Below are positions 20,666 to 32,333 of a DNA stretch of 64,000 bases, in pieces. The position numbers and the translations under genes were made by a program. Within the stretch, counting starts at the first letter, position 1, and each line of letters starts with the position of its first letter. Origin of the DNA: Candidatus Oxydemutatoraceae bacterium. Its GTDB lineage: Bacteria > Pseudomonadota > Gammaproteobacteria > Poriferisulfidales > Oxydemutatoraceae. Under the pieces are notes generated by a model. That model was not told where the DNA came from and ran no database searches. It saw only the letters and a program-made list of their open reading frames with translations. Where the stretch lies: positions 236,769 through 300,768 of the forward strand of contig OZ244779.1 of the NCBI GenBank assembly GCA_965219575.1, read 5' to 3'.

Positions 20666-21418
20666 GGTACTTGACTAGTTTAGGGAGTACGATTTGATAA
20701 AATAACTAGTAATGACAACACCTAACAGACATTTTAGAAGGGCACATATTTCAAACAGGAAAATAAGGCAAATTGTGAGGTATTTTGCCCTTGATCTGAG
20801 TGCAACCCAAATCGCACAAGCAGCCGGGGTCAATAGAAATACCGCGAATAGATATGTCAATATAATCCGAGAAAGAATTGCACAACACTGCGAGCAGACG
20901 AGCCTATTCTCTGGCGAGGTAGAGTTCGATGAGTCCTACTTCGGTGGTCGCAAAAAGGGAGACAAAAGAGGTAGAGGTGCACCGAACAAAGTACCGGTAT
21001 TCGGCATATTAAAAAGAGATGGGAAGGTCTATACGCAGGTGATACGCAATGCTTCAAAGAGCGAGATACGACCTATTATCAAGCGTTTAGTGGGACACAG
21101 GAGTACTATATACACAGATAAATGGAGAGCTTATGACGGGTTGGTGTTGAATGGATACAAACACTACCGCATCAATCATTCAAAGACACTGGGCAGTGGT
21201 ACTAGACATATCAATGGCATTGAAAACTTCTGGGAATGGGCCAAAAGGAGATTAACAAAGTTCTGCGGCGTGTCGAGAAAACATTTCCACCTTCATCTAA
21301 AAGAATGCGAGTGGCGATTCAATCACAGACACCTTTCAGCCTCCCAAAAGTATGAGATGCTAATGAAGATGGTAAGGGATATTTGAGTGGGACTTTGTCC
21401 CTAAACTAGTCAAGTACC
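20666..21418 (+). mobile_element. IS1595-family (IS1016-like) insertion sequence, 753 bp
   Basis: 21-bp perfect TIR GGTACTTGACTAGTTTAGGGA; 8-bp TSD CTTTTTTT at 20658-20665 and 21419-21426. Confidence 0.93.
20712..21386 (+). CDS. IS1595-family DDE transposase
   Basis: VEFDESYFGG, GRG..KVPVFG, IYTD, HINGIENFW, LKECEWRFN. Confidence 0.94.
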   Translation: MTTPNRHFRRAHISNRKIRQIVRYFALDLSATQIAQAAGVNRNTANRYVNIIRERIAQHCEQTSLFSGEVEFDESYFGGRKKGDKRGRGAPNKVPVFGILKRDGKVYTQVIRNASKSEIRPIIKRLVGHRSTIYTDKWRAYDGLVLNGYKHYRINHSKTLGSGTRHINGIENFWEWAKRRLTKFCGVSRKHFHLHLKECEWRFNHRHLSASQKYEMLMKMVRDI

Positions 21419-22186
21419 CTTTTTTTTAATGTTCAGTCTTGACATTACGCTGTATGCATATTTCGAGCTAACCCATACATAATAACGCTGAAACTGTCGC
21501 ATACATAATTGTAAAGCTATATAATTTCGGGATGAAGATTCCTGAGAAACTTCAAGAGTAGAATTTTCAAAATAATTAAAACTTTCCTTAAAAACGAACT
21601 TAATATTGCAATTCATTTTTTCAAAAAACCACGCTACGCCTATTATTGAACGAAAATAATGCCCGAAGGAAATACTAGGCTCTATGACTATCTCAAAATT
21701 AAAGGTAGCATTAGACTCGTTATTATTTGTATTCGCTAATGCCGATTTATCAATGTTTCGGCAACTTTTTGATGTGTCTAATACAGAAAGATTTTGCCTG
21801 CACCATGCTTCTACTCCGCCCTCCTCTACATAAAATGTACGATAACCTAAAGCCTCTAATCTATGACAAAATGCTTCAGCACGCGCCTCGGTATAAGATA
21901 TGAGATAAACGGGTTTAGATTTATTCCACTCCGCCTCCGGATGTTGAATATGGTCTAACAATTCAAGGGGTATAAACGGGATTTCTTCTATTCTAAAGCC
22001 AATGTATTCTCTAAGCGTCCTAACATCCAGAATCGATGTTTTTCTTCTTGCATCAATTACATTTTTCAGTTCTTGTGGCGTTATTTTTTCCATGTTTGTT
22101 CTTTCACAGCCATTTAGGTTTATTTAACTTGTACTACAAGTGCTTAAGCTGAAATAATCGTAGAATATATAGGTTTTATGATAACA

Positions 22187-29137: not shown

Positions 29138-30498
29138 TATCCTTCCTGCTTGATTTTTTCCAAGTTCCGACGCAATATAGGACCTAAATCGTGCTTGCCG
29201 GGGCAGACATAAGAACATAAAGCCAAATCTTCTTCGTCGAGTTCCAGACACCCCAGTTGTTGCGATGTGTCGGTATCCATAACCAATAGCGATTTAATCA
29301 GTTGGGTTGCCAATAAGTCCAACGGCATTACACGTTCGTAAAGTGCTATAGGAACTACTGCGCGCTTGCTACCGTTTTGCATGCATGTAAAAGACCATTT
29401 GGGTTTGTCCTTTCCGAACGACGACAACGGGAACGCTCGGGTGATTGAAAATAAATTGAGACCCGGACGCAGCCACGCCAGCGAAGGTGTCTGCGCTTGT
29501 CGGGGTAAAACCGAAACTTGTAACTCAAAGGCACCTAGATATGCGGTTTCTTCGACAATATCGGAGCCGTCCAACGGCGAACCTGCGATGATGCGCACTG
29601 CGTCGGTATTCAATTCTCCACTACATATATCGTGCAACGGAGTGCCGATCTGCACCCGTAACAGACGCGGATTCTTAACCGCAGGGCCGGCAAAAGAAAT
29701 AACCCGATGCGCCGGATAGGTGCCGGTTAAAAACAACTCGCCTATTGCGATGACATCTTGATAACCTATTCCCCATACGGTTTTATCGCCGTGAATGGGA
29801 TCTAAAAAATGTATATGCGTTCCTAATAAACCGGCAGGATGCGGTCCGGAGAATTCTACCCGCTTTAGCTGTTGATCCTCCGGCACGGTGATTTTGGAAC
29901 CTTCGCCGACACAAACATATATCGTGTTGTCTCCCAACCGCGAGAGTATCTTTAATCCGGCATCGAAGTATCGCGATTGCTCCTCGGTGGCGGCGATTAC
30001 CACTTGCGGGTCGGCAGCGAGCGGACGACTGTCCATTGCGGTTACAAAAATAGAATGCGGGGTGCTGTCGGGTTCCGGGGCTTCGCTGTAGGGACGGGTA
30101 CGCAAGGTTGTCCATAAACCCGAGGTCAATAGCTGGTTTTGTACTTGCGCCCTATCCAGCGATATCAATTGATCTTCGGCGAATTTATCAAATTGTCTAT
30201 TGCGTTGACCCTCAACGCGTATCACCACCGATAAAAGTTTGCGTCGCTCGCCACGATGAATCGCTTCTACAACGCCGCTCACCGGCGAGGTATAGCAAAC
30301 GCCCGGTAAAACTTTATTTTCTACCAACACCTGACCTTTTGCCACCTCATCATCTACCGACACATTCAGATGTGGTTTTAGATTATGATAAGCCCTAAAT
30401 ACCACTGCGACACGCGAGGGCGGAGCACAGTCTTCTATGCGCTGTTCGGGTTCACCCGATAGCGGAATATCCAAACCTTTTTTGACTTGAATTAACAT
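29137..30498 (-). CDS. nqrA: Na+-NQR subunit A
   Basis: KKGLDIP, GPHPAG, ELDEEDLALCSYVCPGK. Confidence 0.96.
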   Translation of the reverse strand: MLIQVKKGLDIPLSGEPEQRIEDCAPPSRVAVVFRAYHNLKPHLNVSVDDEVAKGQVLVENKVLPGVCYTSPVSGVVEAIHRGERRKLLSVVIRVEGQRNRQFDKFAEDQLISLDRAQVQNQLLTSGLWTTLRTRPYSEAPEPDSTPHSIFVTAMDSRPLAADPQVVIAATEEQSRYFDAGLKILSRLGDNTIYVCVGEGSKITVPEDQQLKRVEFSGPHPAGLLGTHIHFLDPIHGDKTVWGIGYQDVIAIGELFLTGTYPAHRVISFAGPAVKNPRLLRVQIGTPLHDICSGELNTDAVRIIAGSPLDGSDIVEETAYLGAFELQVSVLPRQAQTPSLAWLRPGLNLFSITRAFPLSSFGKDKPKWSFTCMQNGSKRAVVPIALYERVMPLDLLATQLIKSLLVMDTDTSQQLGCLELDEEDLALCSYVCPGKHDLGPILRRNLEKIKQEG

Positions 30499-30634
30499 AC
30501 CAATAATCTATGAATACTAAAAACTATGTTCATGGTGTCGGGATAGTTGATTTATGCCTATATTTCGTTGCTTACGGCTTTGAACAACATAATGCATATT
30601 CACTAGTGCCTATAATACACGATATAAGAAAAAT

Positions 30635-31902
30635 GGGAATTATATAGGTAACTTGACAGACTTTGAACCTGCCTTGCCCACCCTATCTTTTTGACGCTTC
30701 ATTGACCGACTTGTGTTGCCACTGTCGCCGTCTCCACATCCGGTTGCGGTACTCCCAGCCGCCAAAATGTTTAATGCAGCATTTACATCCGCATTGTCCT
30801 CGTGTCCGCAATGCCGACACTTAAAAATTGATCGGGTCTTACGGTTTGCTTTATTTACGCTTCCGCATTGATTAAAGGTTTGACTCGTATAGGCCGGATT
30901 GACCTTTTCTGTACAGGCCTTGTAGCTTAAGCATTGCTCCAGTTTATACCAGCCACTCTTTAGTATCTCCCTGTTCAGACCCGACTTTGCCTTCACATTC
31001 TTACCCGGATTGTCTATCGTCCCCTTCGCCGACTTCGTCATGCCTGCCGTACTCAATCCTTCCATATACACAATGTCGTACTGGTCTGCTATTAACCGGC
31101 TGGTTTGATGACACCAATTCGCCCTCGCAAACCGCTCCGCTTGATACGCTTTCTGCAATCTATACTTCGCTAGCTTTCGTCTATTACTACCTTTAACCCG
31201 TCTAGCAACCATTCGCTGATAACGCCTACGCCTTGCCTCCTTACGCTTTAAGTCGGGTAAGTGATACATCGTTCCGTCCGACAATGCGACCTGACCACAA
31301 TTCCTATCTAGTCCTACCGTTGCCACCGGATGCGACCTGCCAGGCACTTCCACTTCATAGGTGATATACGCATACCATTTACCACATTCATACTTGACTT
31401 GACCGCATACAAACTTCTCACCTTGATACCTATCGCCACCGGCAAACTTTATCCAGCCTACCTTCTGTATATACAAGTGACAACCCGATATCTTTGCCGA
31501 TTGATAATTGATCGGGAATGACGGGCTATGCGTATATTTGCCGTGAAACTTCGGCAATCCGTTGTTGCCCTTGAAAAATCCTTTGTATGCTATCTCTATC
31601 CGTTGTAATGACGATTTGACGATATAAGCGGAATAACTTTGCAACCACGGGTCGCAATACTTTCGCAATGTCGTAAATTGCTTGCCTAGGGTGAAGAAGT
31701 TAAACCGGCTCTCGCCGTAATACTCGTATTCGTCCTTCAGCTTAGCTACAAAGTGATTCCAGACATAGCGGCATGCGCCTGCCGTGCCATGTAATTGCCG
31801 GTGTTTTTTCTGTGTCGCCGGGTATAAATGGTATCTAATTGTTCTATGGGTTTGCATTGATATAATTTAACATTCCTTTGTCAAGTTAACTATATAATTC
31901 CC
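30635..31902 (-). mobile_element. Non-autonomous TIR-bounded element carrying only tnpB (1268 bp)
   Basis: 24-bp TIR GGGAATTATATAG(G/T)TAACTTGACA at 30635-30658 and 31879-31902 (one mismatch); 8-bp direct repeat AGAAAAAT at 30627-30634 and 31903-31910. Confidence 0.9.
30640..31857 (-). CDS. tnpB: RNA-guided endonuclease TnpB
   Basis: CRYVWN, RuvC motifs VGLD, VYMEGL and ADVNAALNI; AKSGLNR; zinc finger SQTFNQC...CRHC. Confidence 0.93.
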   Translation of the reverse strand: MQTHRTIRYHLYPATQKKHRQLHGTAGACRYVWNHFVAKLKDEYEYYGESRFNFFTLGKQFTTLRKYCDPWLQSYSAYIVKSSLQRIEIAYKGFFKGNNGLPKFHGKYTHSPSFPINYQSAKISGCHLYIQKVGWIKFAGGDRYQGEKFVCGQVKYECGKWYAYITYEVEVPGRSHPVATVGLDRNCGQVALSDGTMYHLPDLKRKEARRRRYQRMVARRVKGSNRRKLAKYRLQKAYQAERFARANWCHQTSRLIADQYDIVYMEGLSTAGMTKSAKGTIDNPGKNVKAKSGLNREILKSGWYKLEQCLSYKACTEKVNPAYTSQTFNQCGSVNKANRKTRSIFKCRHCGHEDNADVNAALNILAAGSTATGCGDGDSGNTSRSMKRQKDRVGKAGSKSVKLPI

Positions 31903-32021
31903 AGAAAAATTACGCGCTATAAATATGTGGTACATCCTGTCTTAAATTCAATAGGTAAGGCGAACTATTTCCTTCATGGAAAGACATCTAAACCTTCCTC
32001 TGCAGAAATAATGGCAGGTAG

Positions 32022-32333
32022 TCAGATAGCCACCTCTAAACTATCCGATTGTCCTTGGTTATCAAACCAACTCAGTTTGACTACTTTGGATTCTTCCCCT
32101 CCCTTGAACTTGAAGGAGATAAACGGATTCTGAGAGACACCGGTTCCCCAGTAGGCGGTGAAGACTTTTTTACCCTCGTATTCGCCGATCACCGTTTGTA
32201 TGAAGTTTGCCGGGATCGTCTCGCCGGTCTCTTCGTCAACTCTACGCCCGGTCTCCATAGGATGCTTGATCAGTGCTTTAACGATTACTTCGTCATCGTT
32301 TTTGCTAATCCGCATTTTGATCGTTTTTTCCAT
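32022..32333 (-). CDS. soxZ: Sulfur carrier complex protein SoxZ
   Basis: LIKHPMETG, PANFIQ, VSQNPFISF, WFDNQG. Confidence 0.93.
   Translation of the reverse strand: MEKTIKMRISKNDDEVIVKALIKHPMETGRRVDEETGETIPANFIQTVIGEYEGKKVFTAYWGTGVSQNPFISFKFKGGEESKVVKLSWFDNQGQSDSLEVAI

Follow-up and report, generated by a model that had tools for sequence, protein, structure and literature searches.

What moves a tnpB gene that lies between terminal inverted repeats (TIRs), and what might its nuclease do for the element that carries it? The question is raised by a 1268-bp unit in a 64,000-nucleotide stretch of DNA from a Candidatus Oxydemutatoraceae bacterium (GenBank assembly GCA_965219575.1, contig OZ244779.1, positions 236,769 to 300,768 of the forward strand), here called the window, to which all coordinates refer unless a genome or locus is named. 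Nearly all that is understood about TnpB, from which Cas12 descends, comes from IS605 and IS607 elements, insertion sequences (ISs) that excise without a scar. The first-pass annotation of the window, made from the letters alone, proposed that the unit is a tnpB/omegaRNA module mobilised in trans by a DDE transposase, a bacterial parallel to the Fanzors. The comparative data support this core proposal, as the ends recur and bound IS1595-family transposases in other genomes. With good confidence, we regard the unit as a probable tnpB/omegaRNA module in IS1595-type ends that is moved in trans by an IS1595-family DDE transposase.

The genome to which the window belongs (G000) is a single contig of 2.37 Mb that is 98.9% complete. 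The unit is bounded by a 24-bp TIR pair with one mismatch between the ends. The TIR at the tnpB 3' end (30635-30658, plus strand) reads GGGAATTATATAGGTAACTTGACA, and the TIR at the tnpB 5' end (31879-31902, minus strand) reads GGGAATTATATAGTTAACTTGACA as its reverse complement; the TIR pattern has two matches in the window and none in 100 shuffles. The octamer AGAAAAAT is repeated exactly on either side, at 30627-30634 on the tnpB 3' side and at 31903-31910 on the 5' side. In G003, a genome of the same genus, the orthologous site is uninterrupted and reads ACACGATATA, AGGAAAAC and TACGTGC in succession, with a single octamer. The single octamer of this empty site identifies the 1268-bp unit as the insertion and the 8-bp repeat as its target-site duplication (TSD). 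No transposase gene is found within the unit, tnpB being its sole long open reading frame (ORF), and the element is therefore an IS1595 derivative and not an autonomous member, so its transposase would have to be borrowed from the IS1595 family. The first-pass annotation had described the same anatomy, namely a tnpB-filled unit with 24-bp TIRs and one mismatch, an exact flanking duplication, a stop codon inside a TIR and no tnpA; its coordinates are off by at most one base, as in the end of the duplication (31910/31911).

The TIR at the tnpB 5' end holds an inward TTGACA 21 nt before the ATG. This hand-read box was not called in a promoter and terminator scan, which returned 3 promoter-like sites against 3.2 expected. 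One of the sites, TTCAAA-17 nt-TATAAT at 30639-30667 on the minus strand, points outward with its -10 box within the TIR tip. Transcripts from it would begin about at the element boundary, although the number of such sites (3) is not above that in shuffled sequence (3.2).

The tnpB ORF (30640-31857, minus strand) encodes 405 amino acids (aa). Its ATG lies 21 nt from the TIR at its 5' end, and its stop codon (30640-30642) falls inside the opposite TIR. The protein passes the Pfam cut-offs for HTH_OrfB_IS605, OrfB_IS605 and Cas12f1-like_TNB and reaches 194.6 bits to NCBIfam guided_TnpB (cut-off 100), and its residues 9-376 align with the ISDra2 TnpB (E=3.6e-26). It stays below the cut-offs of the NCBIfam models IS200_TnpB (159 bits; cut-off 425) and IS607_TnpB (79.6 bits; cut-off 350). 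The ORF is intact in all five full-length G000 copies, each of which has the RuvC motifs GLDRN, Y(M/V)EGL and NAD(V/I)NAALN, with the D/E/D residues assigned by alignment. A C4 zinc finger between RuvC-II and RuvC-III, CNKC...CR(H/Y)C, is kept in three of the copies, which are the older ones. The window copy has FNQC and the copy at G000 871714-872972 has CNKR at the first cysteine pair; these two are the most similar pair, and a different cysteine of the first CxxC is gone in each. The ratio of nonsynonymous to synonymous substitution rates (dN/dS) is 0.06-0.22 in all pairs with unsaturated dS, paralogues and subfamilies alike, and judged by these ratios tnpB is under selection.

Members of the IS1595 family are small, with TIRs that start with GG and 8-bp TSDs that are often AT-rich, and the family includes passenger-carrying or transposase-less derivatives such as miniature inverted-repeat transposable elements (MITEs) and mobile insertion cassettes. 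G000 has 11 matches to DDE_Tnp_IS1595 and five to TnpB, and its IS1595-family elements fall into two types. The larger is 1348 bp long and encodes a 320-aa transposase with a Zn-ribbon; it has three intact copies and two 250-bp MITEs in G000, and its insertions duplicate 8 bp of target. Its TIR (GGGAATTATATACTTAAATACATAA) agrees with that of the tnpB element at each of the first 12 nt (12/12), and this is the only type within G000 that carries related ends. The smaller type is 755 bp long, encodes a 224-aa transposase and has a 21-bp TIR (GGTACTTGACTAGTTTAGGGA) and eight G000 copies, including that at 20666-21420 of the window. The first-pass annotation had compared the upstream TIR with this element and counted 11 identities in the first 17 positions. 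The count is arithmetically right, but the comparison is uninformative, and the element was dropped as a likely partner, its TIR sharing only scattered positions with that of the tnpB element. The copy at 20666-21420 is itself complete, with the 8-bp duplication CTTTTTTT, and sits between two paralogous genes.

Closer matches to the ends are found in related genomes. The full 24-nt TIR, with at most two mismatches, is present in 14 of 100 other related genomes. A near-exact TIR bounds Zn_ribbon_IS1595 and DDE_Tnp_IS1595 genes in G004 (same genus), G006, G022 and G038, so that an IS1595 transposase with the ends of the tnpB unit does occur in sister genomes; in G006, eight identical transposase copies have eight different exact TSDs. 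A near-exact TIR likewise bounds tnpB in G003 and G026. The proteins encoded between identical or near-identical TIRs pass DDE_Tnp_IS1595, Zn_ribbon_IS1595 and NF033547. Other tnpB subfamilies of sister genomes keep the tip GGGAATTATATA, which is common to IS1595-family transposase elements, and have a different inner TIR. Several of these subfamilies have a transposase element of matching inner TIR, and G001 holds both. From the shared ends, the TSDs and the copy-number patterns we infer mobilisation in trans by an IS1595-family transposase. The transposases usual for tnpB elements gave no matches in G000, neither Y1_Tnp (E<=0.001) nor the serine recombinase domain Resolvase; a 188-aa ORF of a different G000 repeat family reaches 25.2 bits to Y1_Tnp when scanned alone.

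A profile search over one genome per species gave 363 related stretches, of which the best 80 were analysed. They come from metagenome-assembled genomes titled Ca. Porisulfidus, Ca. Oxydemutator, Arenicellales, Chromatiales, Thiotrichales, Thermodesulfobacteriota and Opitutales. The tip (at most two mismatches in 9) is found at both ends of 69 of the 80 loci, and four of the 11 loci without the tip at both ends are cut at a contig end. TIR identity is at least 19/26 at 56 of the 80 loci; among them, the 8-bp TSD is exact at 28 and matches in at least 7 of 8 positions at 38. The first-pass annotation had allowed that close TnpB homologues might all carry canonical IS605 ends, and 56 of the 80 closest loci lie in IS1595-type ends. 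The tnpB-centred units with recognisable ends among the 80 loci are 1.2-1.9 kb long and therefore too short for a transposase plus tnpB, and no unit with both was found among those whose gene content was inspected. Two more distant TnpB families, of 409 aa and 458 aa, also lie between such ends. A further TnpB family of 470-473 aa, at loci L248-L250 (G034, G030), has different imperfect inverted ends (...GCTTCAGGATTCCGTGTGGAAT...) and no recognisable 8-bp duplication at the boundaries picked.

Longer TIR-bounded units carry additional DNA. L196 is a tnpB unit with extra DNA, and L204, L206, L207, L209 and L211 hold other cargo, which is methyltransferase-like by motif in L207, L209 and L211. 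These last three are IS1595 elements of 2.4-2.7 kb in sister genomes (L207 134-2813, L209 88-2496, L211 1369-3902) that encode a 307-aa transposase and have a second ORF, of 400-434 aa, in which the methyltransferase-like motif DPPF(N/S) is found, and two of them have an exact 8-bp TSD. In G000 itself, locus L060 (1-3763; G000 226000-229762) is closed by the IS1595-type end GAGAATTATATACTTTAAGTATG..., 13 bp from the tnpB copy at 229776. Inside it are the truncated N-terminus of a Zn-ribbon transposase, a D12-class adenine methyltransferase (Pfam E=9e-34) and an ORF of 264 aa without family, and a 755-bp IS1595 copy is inserted on its other side. L060 may represent restriction-modification cargo on the same kind of ends.

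The layout of the unit could also be read as an IS605- or IS607-type tnpB element nested in a pre-existing IS1595-derived MITE, in which case the TIRs and the duplication would be those of the MITE. Short TIR-bounded copies without tnpB do exist in G000 (140, 198, 224 and 226 bp), and the 140-bp form is seen in all four sequencing runs examined. There is, however, no space for IS605 ends: 21 nt separate the ATG from its TIR, and tnpB terminates within the opposite one. The 140-bp copy joins element positions 1-94 to 1223-1268, and a nested unit would therefore begin at the second base of the start codon. Against nesting also stand the conserved RNA structure described below, which takes in the TIR tip, the same arrangement at 56 of the 80 related loci with co-varying TIR subfamilies, and the lack of Y1 or serine transposase matches in G000. 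Nesting, which the first-pass annotation had named among the findings that would refute its proposal, is thus largely refuted by the anatomy and the comparative data, and we consider it extremely improbable.

The family to which the unit belongs is present in several forms in its own genome. G000 holds five full-length copies, at 100, 90, 85, 85 and 81% identity, and the four short, MITE-like copies, along with solo ends and one copy disrupted by an IS3-family element. The TIR pattern has 21 matches in G000, compared with 0 for the reversed control pattern. The duplications of the G000 copies are exact in three cases (AGAAAAAT, AATGAGTG and AAATCATA), match in 7 of 8 positions in three and are unrecognisable in the rest, and the TIR is thus seen with different octamers both among these copies and at sister-genome loci. 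One G000 copy is orthologous with a copy in G003 and has the identical TSD AATGAGTG. The 140-bp copy is an internal deletion that is 98-99% identical to the window copy. Its joint is found in contigs of 4/4 runs, and in the same runs contigs enter the element from both flanks. A joint skipping the whole element, as in an empty site, was not found in the contigs of the four runs, which are fragmented in the multi-copy element and give this little weight.

The disrupted copy lies in a rearranged tnpB element at G000 663666-665504 (L065, L041), which is split by a 1.23-kb IS3-family element with rve domains that has nine copies in G000. The genome is repeat-rich for its 2.37 Mb, with 282 merged repeat intervals of at least about 300 bp in a self-comparison, including IS110, IS3, IS481/IS630-like and PD-(D/E)XK 'transposase' families as well as long duplicated blocks.

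The G000 copies might alternatively be host-domesticated or immobile relics that have a cellular function, such as defence or regulation, outside the transposon life cycle. G000 lacks an exact-TIR transposase, its copies are only 81-90% identical to each other, and one copy is shared with G003 at the same TSD. The intact RuvC residues are unlike those of inactivated TnpB-derived regulators, the window copy is missing from the orthologous G003 site, the 140-bp derivative is 98-99% identical to the ends of the window copy, and the sister genomes have a multi-copy family with fresh exact TSDs. This reading is rated as highly improbable, and we return to the tnpB module moved in trans.

At the tnpB 3' end, where a guide RNA would overlap the gene, the coding sequence is more conserved at synonymous sites than elsewhere. 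Codons for the same amino acid are identical in 0.49-0.74 of pairs over codons 1-345 and in 0.77-0.87 over the last 75 codons (331-405). RNAalifold, run on 13 sequences, predicts a structure with nine compensated pairs. In a 22-pair structure examined across 46 sequences, 97.8% of cells are paired, compared with 88.3% in shuffles, none of 500 of which reach the observed value. With the partners slid, at most 58.7% are paired, a control in which the structure has an advantage, having been derived from a subset of the tested sequences. Changes on both sides (compensatory) occur in 11 of the 22 pairs. A covarying, omegaRNA-like structure is thus predicted that extends to the last base of the element, and we propose a scaffold of about 129 nt (30635-30763, minus strand) that shares sequence with the tnpB 3' end and takes in the TIR completely. 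Folding of five copies predicts in each a hairpin at the tnpB 3' end that extends with its 3' arm into the inner TIR. The first-pass annotation had seen no strong subterminal hairpin, which is right only in part: the window copy has the predicted hairpin too, in the weakest form of the five. The sole Rfam match in window 30400-32100 at E<=10, to a snoRNA, scores 15 bits and is put down to chance.

The scaffold would include the tip of the TIR as one strand of a pseudoknot. A conserved loop, GGGA(A/G)U, lies 117-122 nt from the end and is complementary to the terminal TIR tip AUUCCC. In the window copy, the loop GGGAGU is at 30751-30756 and the tip, beside the proposed guide, at 30635-30640 (minus strand), and the loop pairing is also part of its minimum free energy fold. 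This helix, the third of the model, is 98.6% paired, and compensatory changes are seen from A-U to C-G in L196 and from U-A to C-G in L173. The loop contains a glycine codon that is nearly always GGG, although synonymous divergence is saturated in the rest of the gene. The tip of the end therefore appears, in this alignment, to form a pseudoknot strand of the omegaRNA. A comparable arrangement is described for the ISDra2 omegaRNA, where guide-adjacent bases -5 to -3 pair with -105 to -103 in the pseudoknot of a 116-nt scaffold (PMC10097598). By analogy, the scaffold proposed here would end together with the TIR, and the guide would therefore be read from the flanking DNA. We place the putative guide at 30615-30634 (minus strand, with an assumed length of 16-20 nt), where it would consist of the TSD and adjoining flank and begin with the duplicated octamer.

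The constant TIR itself could serve as the guide instead. TnpB would then be directed against the ends of IS1595 siblings or competitors, cutting them in interference or to help excision. The TIR is about the length of a guide, and a variable hairpin directly upstream of the 24-nt TIR might be the last stem of the scaffold. This does not agree with the pairing of the TIR tip to the conserved upstream loop, which is accompanied by compensatory changes and corresponds in position to the scaffold pseudoknot of the ISDra2 omegaRNA, nor with the motif described next, which is TAM-like (TAM, target-adjacent motif) and lies in the flank and not beside the TIR. Targeting of all copies of the own family would also be costly. 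We regard a TIR-derived guide as very unlikely and continue with a guide that would be read from the flank.

We compared 41 non-identical insertion sites with a TSD of at least 7/8, oriented by tnpB. On the tnpB 5' side, a purine directly precedes the octamer in 40 of the 41 sites; the mirrored position has one in 16 of 41 (Fisher p=5e-9), and so do 15 of the 38 sides of 19 transposase-carrying control elements (p=7e-9). Further out on the tnpB 5' side, C is absent from position -2, and A occupies position -3 in 26 of the 41 sites. An origin of the motif as a -35 promoter box was considered and rejected, position -2 never being C. A transposase that acts on near-identical ends should not leave an asymmetry that tracks the orientation of the cargo. 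The motif lies where a TAM must be located if a flank-derived guide targets the empty site, as we infer from these insertion sites. In the window, the candidate TAM reads GTA on the tnpB strand (31911-31913, minus strand), directly 5' of the octamer as it stands in the empty site.

These observations also bear on the possibility that tnpB is an inert or decaying passenger on IS1595 ends that has no role in their spread, the conservation at the 3' end and the flank motif having other causes. IS1595 elements of these genomes do carry other cargo (the methyltransferase-like genes of L207, L209 and L211, and a methyltransferase with a second ORF in L060), and two G000 copies have lost a zinc-finger cysteine. 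A passenger of this kind fits poorly with dN/dS values of 0.06-0.22 across paralogues and subfamilies and with ORFs that are intact in all five G000 copies. It leaves the covarying RNA structure and the raised synonymous-site conservation at the 3' end to be explained, as well as a flank asymmetry that tracks tnpB orientation and is absent from transposase-only elements. We therefore consider an inert passenger unlikely, and favour a tnpB that contributes to the element carrying it.

In the mechanism we propose, the element would be a derivative of an IS1595-family IS in which the DDE transposase gene was replaced by an intact tnpB with an overlapping omegaRNA between IS1595-type ends. Its movement would depend entirely on an IS1595-family transposase working on its ends in trans, for which the 320-aa type with the shared 12-nt tip would be the sole candidate in G000; the G000 copies may depend on this tip match or may be stranded. 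The RNA scaffold would run to the last base of the element, with the TIR tip as pseudoknot strand, and the guide would be read from the flanking DNA, the duplicated octamer first. So guided, TnpB would cleave the uninterrupted form of the site in which its element is inserted, beside the short motif, and cutting of the empty allele would favour retention of the element or its copying by homologous repair, as has been proposed for the TnpB of IS605 and IS607. The steps beyond a transposase-less IS1595 derivative moved in trans are held with lower confidence than that first step. In its widest form the proposal is tentative, and we would put it at possible but somewhat short of probable: a multi-phylum TnpB lineage would have left IS605 and IS607 and would now exist only as cargo of transposase-less IS1595 elements, the first six TIR bases would double as a pseudoknot strand, the guide would start with the variable 8-bp duplication, and the flank motif would be a population signature of TnpB homing or retention for DDE transposons.

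Several observations weigh against parts of this proposal. For the partnership, the transposase with the exact TIR is found only in other genomes and not in G000, where the nearest transposase is 51% identical to the G004 cognate and has ends that share only the 12-nt tip plus scattered inner positions. The G000 copies are mutually 81-90% identical, and therefore none of them is a very recent duplicate. The co-occurrence of the two genes gives modest support. The transposase is present in 16 of 19 other TnpB-positive genomes and in 12 of 81 TnpB-negative ones, a tally that includes the unpublished genome G091, and in the two families to which nearly all hits belong the counts are 15 of 18 and 8 of 16, with relatives that are not independent samples. 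For the nuclease, the window copy (FNQC) and the 871-kb copy (CNKR) are each short of one zinc-finger cysteine. For the RNA, the fold of the window copy is indistinguishable from shuffles (z=-0.22; other copies -0.9 to -3.6), and the pseudoknot helix varies little, each of its compensatory changes being found in a single sequence. The flank motif is degenerate (A-D-R) and pooled across subfamilies, some of the 41 sites are possibly orthologous, and a single G006 element accounts for eight of the 19 control sites. Finally, the rationale for homing is weaker than for IS605, because excision by a DDE transposase already leaves a double-strand break (PMC13565253).

What an RNA-guided nuclease offers to a DDE transposon, which duplicates its target and leaves a break, is a question raised in a 2026 review (PMC13565253), and it is also the situation of the eukaryotic Fanzors. 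The elements described here form a compact bacterial test system for it, in which transposase-only and tnpB-only elements are matched by their shared ends, 8-bp duplications are clean at many natural insertion sites and a candidate TAM can be read from genomes. In this system, the scaffold of the guide RNA has to coexist with the binding site of the transposase. IS1595 would be added to the transposase families that TnpB can partner, and the annotation 'IS200/IS605 family' misdescribes the element in which such tnpB genes lie.

The association of TnpB with DDE transposases has a precedent, where the first-pass annotation knew of no characterised example but allowed that there might be one. Altae-Tran et al. 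(2023, PNAS; PMC10691335) describe six DDE-associated TnpB branches (DDE-1 to DDE-6), all with inverted terminal repeats, and solo TnpBs that have the same ends as transposase-bearing units and are read as 'mobilized by transposases in trans'. IS630 (DDE-6) is the only DDE family named in the main text of that paper, and the 2026 review names ISL2, IS630 and IS1031 (PMC13565253). The term IS1595 does not occur in the main text of PMC10691335, a statement about the main text only, so that overlap with one of its DDE branches is possible, and no report of tnpB as IS1595 cargo was found in full-text literature searches judged by titles and abstracts. The DDE-1 to DDE-6 elements resemble those described here in that TnpB lies within inverted-repeat elements with its 3' end near the transposon end and that solo copies share ends with the transposase-bearing units. 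They differ in that TnpB is described there as encoded together with a DDE transposase, whereas none of the units inspected here has both. The general arrangement of a DDE-linked TnpB with solo copies moved in trans is thus already known. Subject to the supplement of PMC10691335, the IS1595 partnership, the strict arrangement of either transposase or tnpB, the TIR tip as pseudoknot strand and the flank signature appear to be new.

With the tnpB-only elements of IS200/IS605 (the IS1341 group), the unit shares tnpB as its sole gene, and its protein aligns with the ISDra2 TnpB. As in the ISDra2 model, the guide RNA is predicted here to overlap the tnpB 3' end up to the element boundary, with a predicted pseudoknot between guide-adjacent bases and a site about 100-120 nt upstream. 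By the account of the review (PMC13565253), IS605 elements lack both TIR and TSD, and their Y1 HUH transposase places them 3' of a fixed motif of 4-5 nt. The present element has 24-bp TIRs and variable 8-bp TSDs, and its genome has no Y1 transposase; from IS607 it differs by the combination of TIR and TSD and by the absence of Resolvase matches in G000. A parallel in layout is found among Fanzor1 and Fanzor2* elements, including a non-autonomous SfAV element, in which a TnpB-family nuclease is the sole gene of a non-autonomous element bounded by TIRs and TSDs, and in which the guide RNA must likewise accommodate bases recognised by the transposase (Yoon et al. 2023, PMC10711439). Those elements belong to eukaryotic or viral hosts and to other transposase superfamilies, whereas the element described here is bacterial, encodes a TnpB of ordinary size and has IS1595-type ends. 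With the IS1595 family itself, the tnpB element shares GG-starting TIRs and 8-bp TSDs, and the same ends also form MITEs and carry methyltransferase-like cargo; it differs from that family in having no DDE transposase of its own and in carrying tnpB as its cargo.

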